Virus genome (UHGV): UHGV-1710946
Strand: one strand, 5' to 3'
Origin: a virus
DNA length: 10,331 nt
A program made the translations under genes and the position numbers. Positions 3,845 through 5,471 of the stretch are shown here, piece after piece (position 1 is the stretch's first letter; the number at the start of each line of letters is the position of its first letter). The notes beneath the pieces are model-generated. The model ran no database searches. It saw only the letters and a program-made list of their open reading frames with translations, and had not been told where the DNA came from.

Positions 3845-4477
3845 TTAAGCCTTGTCAACAGAGACTTGAGCGGCTTTTATGGATAGATTCCCGCTGGCCT
3901 CTATCGCCATACTTCCCCCCGCCTTCAGGGCGACATCCGCGCCTGACTTTATATCGAGATTTCCTGCGGAAGAGATGAATGCCGGACCTTGAGAAATGGC
4001 ATATAACTCCCCGGCCTCGTTGAACCCGATTGTTGTTCCACTTTTCAAGTGCGTAACGGCCCAGGCTCCGCCCGCCGTCCGGATCTCCATTAGTCCGTTC
4101 CGCGACGAAATAAAGTCTTTTTTGGCGCTGGTTGATGGTTGTGCTGGTGCACCTTCAACTTCAGGCGGTACATAGCCTTCACCTTGTCCTGACGCTTCAG
4201 GCGGCACATTGGGAGCGCCACCGGATGCATCCTGTGCATAACCGATTATCAATGGCCATCGCGAATCCCCATTGTAGGGAAATTCTACCCATACTTTATC
4301 GCCGGGCAGAAATGGTGAAAACGTGTTTGCATTGGACAATATAGCTTCTGCCCACGGCAATGAGGCATCTGGTAACCCATCCATCATGCCGACAACACGT
4401 ATTTGTGTACGCATCAGACCTTTAGGGTCATCGACGCTTACCACTACAGCCCGATACTTCCCTGTCAAACTACCCAT
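3845..4477 (-). CDS. Phage baseplate central spike-like protein (gp5/gpV/VgrG-type N-terminal OB-fold with a Gly/Ser/Ala-rich C-terminal region)
   Basis: N-terminal block [21 protein letters not shown]...LPWAEAI...[22 protein letters not shown] follows the Phage_base_V/gp5 OB-fold pattern (G-V-V-dDP-G-RVrV...W-a...PG-eV-V-F-GD-P-iiG). The C-terminus has short G/S/A-rich repeats ([28 protein letters not shown]) suggestive of beta-helix. AGGAG lies 6 nt upstream of the ATG; the start overlaps the upstream gene's stop by 8 nt. Confidence 0.7.
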
Positions 4478-5471
4478 TCACCACTCCTAACTGTGCACGG
4501 CTGATAAAACGAAAGCGGTCTTCGAAATGAGTCACGGACATCACTATCATTTTGTCAGGGATAGATTCATCGAGTTCTCCGTCACCTGCCGTGTTATGCA
4601 CGACAATTTTCAGCGTCGTACCCGGAGTTAGCGCGGCATTTCCTTCCACCAGCATATCGAGGCGGGGGAGAATGAATTTGTTGTAGTTTGCCAGCGCGGT
4701 AGGATCGGGATTGCTCGTAAATTTAATGGGGTCTTCCTGGTTACCTGAGTAAACCACACCTTTGGTCATGTCATAACTTGCCATTCTGTAATTGTGGCGG
4801 CGCTGGTATTCATAATCGGCATTCAGGATGTTGAACTGACTAATTGTAAATCCGGATGTGTTGGGATTGGCGGACTCATAAGTAAGCGATGGAGCGGCGT
4901 TTGCCATTTTTTCCATACTTTTAAAATTGATCGTCCCCCTGGATGCCCAGCACATAGAACCGGTATCCCGGGCTATCTCCTGCAATACCTTGGTCGGTTT
5001 TTCTCCAACATTTAGGTGGTATGTGGATGTTTTTCTGAATGAGTCAGCATTTACCTTCAGACCAGGGGCAAGAGAGGAAACTACGGCTGATGGTGGCTTA
5101 TCAACAAAATACTGTGCGCTGGTGGACGGAACTTTTAATAACCGCACCGGGTTACTAAACGTATCGTCCTTGCGCGGCGCTTTAAGAACAAAGAACTCTT
5201 CCGAGAAGAGGATGCCGCCATGACCTTCCGGATCACCAAGTGAAACGGTCAGTATTGTCCCAAATTTCACCCCCAGCTTATTGACCACGTAAGCCGTTGA
5301 ATCCCTGACCATGAGCATAAGCTGGGGACCAGATAGCTCCCCGGGTTCGACATAGGTACATCCTACGATCATTTCGCGAGGGATTTCGTTCTGCCCAATT
5401 GAAACAGATTGCAGGAATAGCTGAGTGCGTTTTGAATCAGTTTCCGGGGCTGTGGTGGTCTTTGTGGCCAT
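4470..5471 (-). CDS. Hypothetical protein; position immediately upstream of the spike gene suggests a hub-like (gp27/gpD-type) role, but this is unverified
   Basis: 333-aa ORF with GGAGGA SD overlapping the end of the upstream gene. The hub call rests only on gene order (a gp27-like domain precedes the gp5-like domain in VgrG and Mu-like baseplates); no motif was recognised. Confidence 0.6.

Follow-up and report, generated by a model that had tools for sequence, protein, structure and literature searches.

Genes 6 and 5 in a P1-like element

The stretch of DNA analysed here (10,331 nucleotides (nt) of the virus genome UHGV-1710946, hereafter the window) contains, between positions 3845 and 5471, a pair of overlapping genes for which a preliminary description, made from the letters alone, had proposed the roles of baseplate hub and spike. 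The two open reading frames (ORFs) of 333 and 210 amino acids (aa) with overlapping stop and start codons that it had described are indeed found at 4470-5471 and 3845-4477, and the overlap amounts to 8 nt. Both genes lie on the minus strand, to which the terms upstream and downstream refer. Judged by its sequence, the window is a bacteriophage P1-like plasmid-prophage of the genus Punavirus, since its sequence beyond position 1037 is collinear with that of phage P1 (NC_005856; 98.7% identity over 9.3 kb) and its nearest relative is the Escherichia coli IncY plasmid pMTY1586_IncY, to which it is 99.5% identical over its whole length. The two-gene region gave 18 matches among phage records, all of them to P1, P7 or P1-like phages at 97.6-98.5% identity. 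Of 5426 complete E. coli genomes, 481 harbour such elements.

The two ORFs are almost certainly the P1 genes 6 (hub) and 5 (spike), with which the late operon 26-25-7-24-6-5 ends. The most direct evidence comes from the P1 baseplate solved by cryo-electron microscopy (PDB 9vzk), in which the product of the first gene finds chain 1 ('Gp6') with an E-value of 1.1e-219 and that of the second chain q ('Gp5') with an E-value of 1.1e-136, the latter with 209 of 210 residues identical. The PHROG families 1390 (gp6, E 8e-153) and 430 (gp5, E 1.2e-51) were also recovered, and NCBIfam gave no meaningful match for either protein. Leaving aside a deletion treated below, gp6 differs from its P1 counterpart by three substitutions and is 98% identical to the solved protein. 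In the published structure, determined at 3.2 Å, a trimer of gp6 forms the hub at the centre of the baseplate, between the tube initiator and the spike (9vzk; PMC12810830), and the two proteins are named accordingly trimeric hub and trimeric spike (PMC12810830; bioRxiv 10.1101/2025.07.21.665459). That study also describes Tub as tube initiator, PmgG as tube-linking protein, gp26 as plug and PmgA, gp16 and BplA as wedges (PMC12810830), and an independent preprint arrives at the same stack (bioRxiv 10.1101/2025.07.21.665459). Together with the hub fold recovered by Foldseek (see below) and the literature, the chains of 9vzk support the roles given to the pair in the preliminary description. The gene 6/gene 5 pair is already published with a solved structure, and the identification is of little consequence except for correct annotation; all that remains curious is a private deletion in the hub gene with two accompanying indels.

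The junction between hub and spike (4470-4487, minus strand) consists of a GGAG Shine-Dalgarno motif at 4484-4487 and the 8-nt overlap ATGGGTAG at 4470-4477, and reads ...GGAGTGGTGAATGGGTAG on the minus strand. The ATG of gene 5 (4477-4475) begins 8 nt inside gene 6, whose TAG stop codon occupies 4472-4470, and the GGAG lies 6 nt upstream of this ATG. Comparable junctions were found in more distant relatives. A P1-related element of Enterobacter soli (gp6 45% and gp5 49% identical) has the same six-gene block, with hub and then spike in last position and an overlap of 11 nt, and phage D6 (gp6 37% identical) shows a 4-nt overlap between hub and spike genes, which again stand at the end of the block. 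Distant synteny was taken from the E. soli contig and phage D6, the alignment of 114 gp6 family members having no searchable conserved stretch; a search of viral contigs with a closer gp6 alignment recovered near-identical P1-type loci only, and one with two distant single proteins recovered nothing. By sequence, the overlap of hub and then spike is conserved across relatives at 37-45% identity, with a length that varies (8, 11 and 4 nt). The overlap, equipped with its own Shine-Dalgarno motif, most likely couples the translation of both genes, as is suggested by its presence here and by its conservation.

The hub protein gp6

The relationship of gp6 to the hubs of other contractile systems had already been detected by HHpred, which links it to T4 gp27 and Mu gp44 (Gonzales et al. 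2022; PMC9024508). For the present analysis 114 members of the gp6 family, reaching down to ~20% identity, were gathered from 1.84 billion representatives. An AlphaFold model of the P1-type gp6 built on this 114-sequence alignment had a predicted local distance difference test score (pLDDT) of 93.4 and a predicted template modelling (TM) score (pTM) of 0.89. When compared with the PDB by Foldseek, it matched 9vzk_1 with a TM score of 0.91, followed by T4 gp27 (1wth_D, TM 0.64-0.67), Mu gp44 (1wru and 9ki1_G, TM 0.60-0.64) and the gpD-like prophage tail proteins 3cdd and 3d37 (TM ~0.6), while VgrG, PVC8, Afp8 and the hub of pyocin R2 were recovered with E-values of 1e-11 to 1e-18. All the listed matches had a probability of 1.0, and the TM scores among hubs other than that of P1 ranged from 0.55 to 0.67. 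The gp27/gpD-like fold on which the preliminary description had staked its reading was found in this way, with the P1-type model.

The profile by which that description had proposed to recognise the hub behaved differently. Neither gp6 nor its 113 relatives are matched by Phage_GPD (PF05954), and the window's protein has no Pfam match at all at E <= 1. In these models the kinship of gp6 to gp27 and gpD is visible at the fold level only and not by sequence, because the Phage_GPD profile matches neither gp6 nor its relatives. The practical consequence is that gp6-like hubs escape Phage_GPD, so that annotation pipelines relying on profiles only would miss the hub in P1-like elements. A fusion of hub and spike was sought in three long gp6 relatives (459, 657 and 580 aa), none of which has a Pfam domain or a gp5-like C-terminus.

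Several observations weigh against the identification of the pair as a functional hub and spike. At an E-value cut-off of 0.01, Pfam phage families, Phage_GPD included, were found in 0 of the 114 gp6 family members, and a profile of these 114 sequences run against the PDB gives no better than E 0.07-0.1 for VgrG-type chains. Modelled on an alignment of 12 sequences, the 333-aa variant of the window itself yielded low confidence (pLDDT 60.8); this alignment is much shallower and the result is not fairly comparable with the P1-type model, and the variant still matches hub proteins only, with E-values of 1e-7 to 1e-10. The OB domain of gp5 scores 0.9 bits below the Pfam cut-off of 23.8 bits. The gp6 of the window lacks residues 105-109, and the hub of this particular element may be defective. 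Finally, the translational coupling that enters the mechanism proposed below is a step that we infer.

Public names offer another reading of the 333-aa protein, namely as a tape-measure or length protein of the tail. Several phage records, and a cluster that comprises 1638 sequences, name gp6 'phage tail tape measure protein', and mutants of P1 gene 6 make tails of variable length (PMC9024508). Against this, the model shows a beta-rich globular hub fold with some alpha structure and no long helical ruler, the solved structure has the protein as a trimer at the centre of the baseplate (PMC12810830), and 333-338 aa are too few for the P1 tail, whose tape measure is Sit, with 1140 aa (PMC9024508). 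The tape-measure reading is very improbable and is refuted by the solved structure. Some records call gp5 'baseplate hub'; both this name and 'tape measure' for gp6 conflict with the structure.

The spike protein gp5

The spike protein can be dissected into three parts. The first, at residues 8-80 (4238-4456, minus strand), is an OB-fold domain that docks under the hub. The preliminary description had recognised an OB-fold here, and it is detected by Phage_base_V (PF04717) with an E-value of 1.1e-4 and 22.9 bits, over positions 1-73 of the 75 of the profile, so that practically the full profile is matched at a score slightly under the cut-off. It is the only family matched in all nine of nine gp5 homologues, the best of which, with 28.2 bits, is above the cut-off. 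Weak sequence matches in the PDB to Afp8 and All3320 fall on this same domain.

The OB-fold is followed by a linker rich in proline, alanine and glycine (residues 83-120, 4118-4231, minus strand), delimited by its composition and located at the site of the lysozyme domain in T4 gp5. No lysozyme family of Pfam is matched in gp5, which has this 38-residue linker instead, in agreement with the literature, where P1 gp5 is described without a lysozyme domain (PMC9024508, PMC12810830) and as related to T4 gp5 minus this domain (Gonzales et al. 2022; PMC9024508). The linker holds an internal duplication of 12 residues (NVPPEA... / YVPPEV...), with a 15-nt direct repeat (D1) at 4159-4173 and 4195-4209. 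Beyond this duplication, a repeat search between 3700 and 5600 returned short families of two copies and an inverted pair, seemingly chance matches.

The third part (residues 123-210, 3848-4111, minus strand) corresponds to the short repeats rich in glycine, serine and alanine of the preliminary description, which are real: alanine, glycine and serine together make up 42% of this region, and it has a period of eight residues, with a self-identity of 13/42 at lag 8 against at most 5 at the other lags between 4 and 12. It is the C-terminal beta-helix needle, with eleven rungs of eight residues each; the needle of the solved spike has 11 layers of beta-strands (bioRxiv 10.1101/2025.07.21.665459). 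The trimeric assembly is taken from the literature, in which the spike complex consists of trimeric gp5 and monomeric UpfC (PMC12810830). Spikes of the P1 type have 210 aa, and most relatives from Salmonella, Klebsiella and other enterobacteria have 202 aa (window 3848-3990). The difference is exactly one rung of eight residues, which indicates that needle length varies in whole rungs. The exact gp5 sequence of the window occurs on at least 1000 public contigs.

Proposed assembly and comparison with other contractile systems

From the published structure and the organisation of the locus, the following sequence of events can be proposed. The operon 26-25-7-24-6-5 is transcribed from the late promoter LP26, which depends on Lpa. 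The 8-nt overlap would couple translation in such a way that hub and spike are made 3:3, the ratio in which they are assembled. Three copies of gp6 form the central hub, their tube-like beta-barrel domains making a ring of pseudo-six-fold symmetry, by which the three-fold spike is matched to the six-fold tube-initiator proteins (Tub, PmgG). The spike in turn consists of three copies of gp5, with the OB domains under the hub, a flexible Pro/Ala/Gly linker and the octapeptide repeats intertwined as a triangular beta-helix needle, and a single UpfC (gp5.4/PAAR-like), encoded elsewhere in P1, caps the tip. Contraction of the sheath then drives the tube with its hub-spike tip through the outer membrane. 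The muralytic activity, which in T4 resides inside gp5, comes in P1 from the tape-measure protein Sit and its transglycosylase domain.

Among the known systems phage P1 itself (NC_005856; 9vzk) is the closest, with the same genes in the same order and the same 8-nt overlap, promoter and terminator; it differs from the window in having the residues VLIYA at 105-109 of gp6 and the tciA-C region at the left flank. The comparison with T4 (gp27, gp5 and gp5.4; PDB 1k28, 1wth) is more distant. Both spikes have the OB domain, a beta-helix of octapeptides at the C-terminus and one tip protein (PMC12810830, PMC9024508), and gp6 shares the fold of gp27 at a sequence identity of only 10-13%. T4 gp5 has a lysozyme domain where the P1-type protein has only its linker. 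The hub and spike genes, which are adjacent and overlapping in P1, are not known to be adjacent in T4. Closer in organisation are Mu (gp44/gp45) and P2 (gpD/gpV), which, like P1, have a separate hub of ~330-380 aa and a small OB-domain spike without an enzyme domain; the P1 baseplate has been described with the nomenclature of Mu (PMC12810830). Unlike these phages, P1 has a hub that the Phage_GPD profile does not see, and its tip bears an additional tripod protein, UpfB (PMC12810830).

VgrG of type VI secretion systems (T6SS) and Afp8/PVC8 of the extracellular contractile injection systems (eCIS) also show this hub fold, with an OB domain and a beta-helix after it, but VgrG carries hub and spike on one polypeptide, whereas the P1-type proteins come from two genes with overlapping stop and start codons. 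The pair could in principle be a split VgrG of a bacterial T6SS or of an eCIS, given that VgrG, PVC8 and Afp8 are among the Foldseek matches and that the OB domain is common to T6SS. We give this reading next to no credence, and the genomic context rules it out. Collinearity with P1 extends over the whole window and takes in its late promoter, C1 operator, ban, dbn and pmg genes; T6SS, eCIS and effector genes are absent from it. The PAAR or effector gene that the preliminary description had suggested looking for nearby was not found in any ORF of the window by Pfam, PHROG or NCBIfam families; P1 has the gene of its tip protein UpfC at another place in the genome (PMC9024508).

A private deletion in gene 6

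Alignment with P1 and pMTY1586_IncY revealed a 15-nt in-frame deletion in gene 6 (at 5160/5161, minus strand) that removes the P1 residues V105-L-I-Y-A109 and makes the protein 333 instead of 338 aa long. It is not alone. The whole window differs from the nearest plasmid by 10 substitutions and three indels, of which the second is a 27-nt in-frame insertion (3376-3402), with adjacent substitutions, in dbn (2773-3798, plus strand), the gene of a putative glycosyltransferase; here Dbn has 341 aa vs 332 in P1 and reads ...PYEVTITATTIHMRTL... where P1 has ...PYEAKTL.... The third is a 2-nt (CG) deletion at 9231 in pmgM, which encodes a VRR-NUC domain protein of 192 aa in P1 and is split here into the overlapping ORFs 8976-9236 and 9100-9552 (plus strand). 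The deletion in gene 6 has no counterpart in any of 482 plasmid records, 481 E. coli genomes or 80 viral contigs; the indels in dbn and pmgM occur in no complete E. coli genome. On these sequence comparisons the three indels appear private to the window. They bear on the intactness of this prophage and not on the identity of the genes, and the private deletion matters only for judging whether the prophage still functions. The flanks of the deletion share just 1 nt of microhomology, leaving an origin by replication slippage between repeats unsupported.

One explanation of these features is that the copy is damaged, the loss of five residues destroying the folding or assembly of the hub, so that a decaying prophage persists as a plasmid and makes no infectious tails. 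This would concern the function of gp6 in this element and not what the gene is. In the model of pLDDT 93 the deleted residues are the core (five of the eight residues) of strand E104-111, which pairs with strand 88-97, leaving the conserved core of the hub incomplete in the window's gp6. Positions 105, 107 and 109 are conserved, being hydrophobic or small in almost all of the 113 relatives, and a gap at 105-109 is seen in none of them, even at ~20% identity. Gene 6 owes its definition, moreover, to conditional-lethal mutants whose tails are aberrant (PMC9024508, citing Walker and Walker 1983), and the private frameshift in pmgM and the insertion in dbn stand beside only 10 substitutions with respect to the nearest plasmid. 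On the other hand, the deletion leaves both the reading frame and Thr104 untouched, all the other structural genes in the window are intact (four of them identical to P1), and the low pLDDT of the 333-aa model is confounded by its alignment of 12 sequences. Damage of this kind is a real possibility, though it falls short of being probable.

The three private indels might also be non-biological, that is, errors of assembly or sequencing or even deliberate edits, in which case the true element would have the wild-type 338-aa hub. The absence of the deletion from all the plasmids, genomes and viral contigs searched speaks for this, as does the absence of the exact 333-aa gp6 and 341-aa Dbn from ~15 billion collected proteins, when the gp5 of the same element is so widespread; the ratio of three indels to 10 substitutions with respect to the nearest relative is odd. 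Yet indels of 15 and 27 nt are atypical of read errors and two of the three keep the reading frame, and we regard an artefactual origin as rather doubtful. It is only tentatively, too, that we entertain a real deletion with which the hub still assembles, or a real and inactivating one that would belong, together with the pmgM frameshift, to an early stage of the decay from phage to plasmid. If the hub does assemble, the lumen-side beta-hairpin of a gp27-like hub would tolerate shortening; if the deletion is inactivating, a P1-like plasmid would have been caught early in its decay to a pure plasmid.

The late operon and its surroundings

The remaining cistrons of the operon that ends with the P1-type hub and spike are intact. 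The late promoter LP26, which drives 26-25-7-24-6-5, is present at 8611-8629 (minus strand) as an exact match to the 19-nt string annotated in P1 NC_005856, and the string of the C1 operator O26 (8654-8670) is also exact with respect to P1. The first cistron, gene 26 (8204-8581, minus strand), encodes 125 aa identical to P1 gp26 and matches PHROG 1269, 'baseplate wedge subunit', with an E-value of 2.7e-40; the protein serves as the plug of the baseplate, tying its wedges to the hub (PMC12810830). Gene 25 (6977-8194, minus strand) encodes a virion-associated tail protein of 405 aa, identical to P1 gp25 and matching PHROG 1722 (E 1e-227), for which a weak signal in liquid chromatography-tandem mass spectrometry and no assigned role have been reported (PMC9024508). 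Around residues 193-237 gp25 contains a CxC...CxH motif (CDCGRHQYW...GVACKHVLH) like that of SWIM-type zinc fingers, and its C-terminus is long, charged and helical; Pfam gave no match for this protein.

Gene 7 (6245-6973, minus strand), with 242 aa identical to P1 gp7 and a match to PHROG 1906, encodes the head-tail connector stopper (PMC12810830). Gene 24 (5473-6258, minus strand), 261 aa from the ATG annotated in P1, with one substitution vs P1 gp24 and a match to PHROG 1767, encodes the tail terminator, a role taken from PMC9024508 and PMC12810830, and its TGA stop lies 1 nt ahead of the ATG of gene 6. The operon mixes functions in this way: plug (gp26), gp25, stopper (gp7), tail terminator (gp24), hub and spike. 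In phage D6 a locus on the opposite strand (843-2761), with a toxin-antitoxin pair, a transcriptional regulator and a gene for a hypothetical protein, lies between the homologues of genes 25 and 7 and splits an operon that is contiguous in P1.

That the pair closes the operon, as stated in the preliminary description, agrees with what follows gene 5. A GC-rich hairpin with an 11-bp stem (3819-3845; -18.1 kcal/mol, z = -2.5) begins at the last base of the gene 5 stop codon, and the next gene, dbn, is convergent; the operon adjoins convergent dbn and ban, as it does in P1. Shared by gene 5 and dbn, this hairpin probably serves as an intrinsic terminator in both directions and closes the operon. 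It was found by direct RNA folding; a simple terminator scan did not report it, likely because part of the U-run lies inside the stem. The same description had remarked that no wedge or fibre genes lie downstream, which is true though no peculiarity, as P1 distributes its tail, baseplate and fibre genes among several operons (PMC9024508). Outside the window lie the genes for the wedges (PmgA, gp16 and BplA), for the fibres and for UpfC, the tip protein.

At the other edge of the collinear region a transfer RNA (tRNA) gene with the anticodon CAT (1047-1122, plus strand), the only match of an Rfam scan of the window, was called tRNA-Met by ARAGORN, and its P1 counterpart, trnI, is annotated as tRNA-Ile2. 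Positions 1-1037 are not collinear with P1. Here, a gene for an SPFH/Band-7 (HflK/C-like) lipoprotein (192-1019) and a small membrane ORF replace tciA-tciB-tciC, an arrangement of the left flank that is common to many P1-like plasmids of E. coli.

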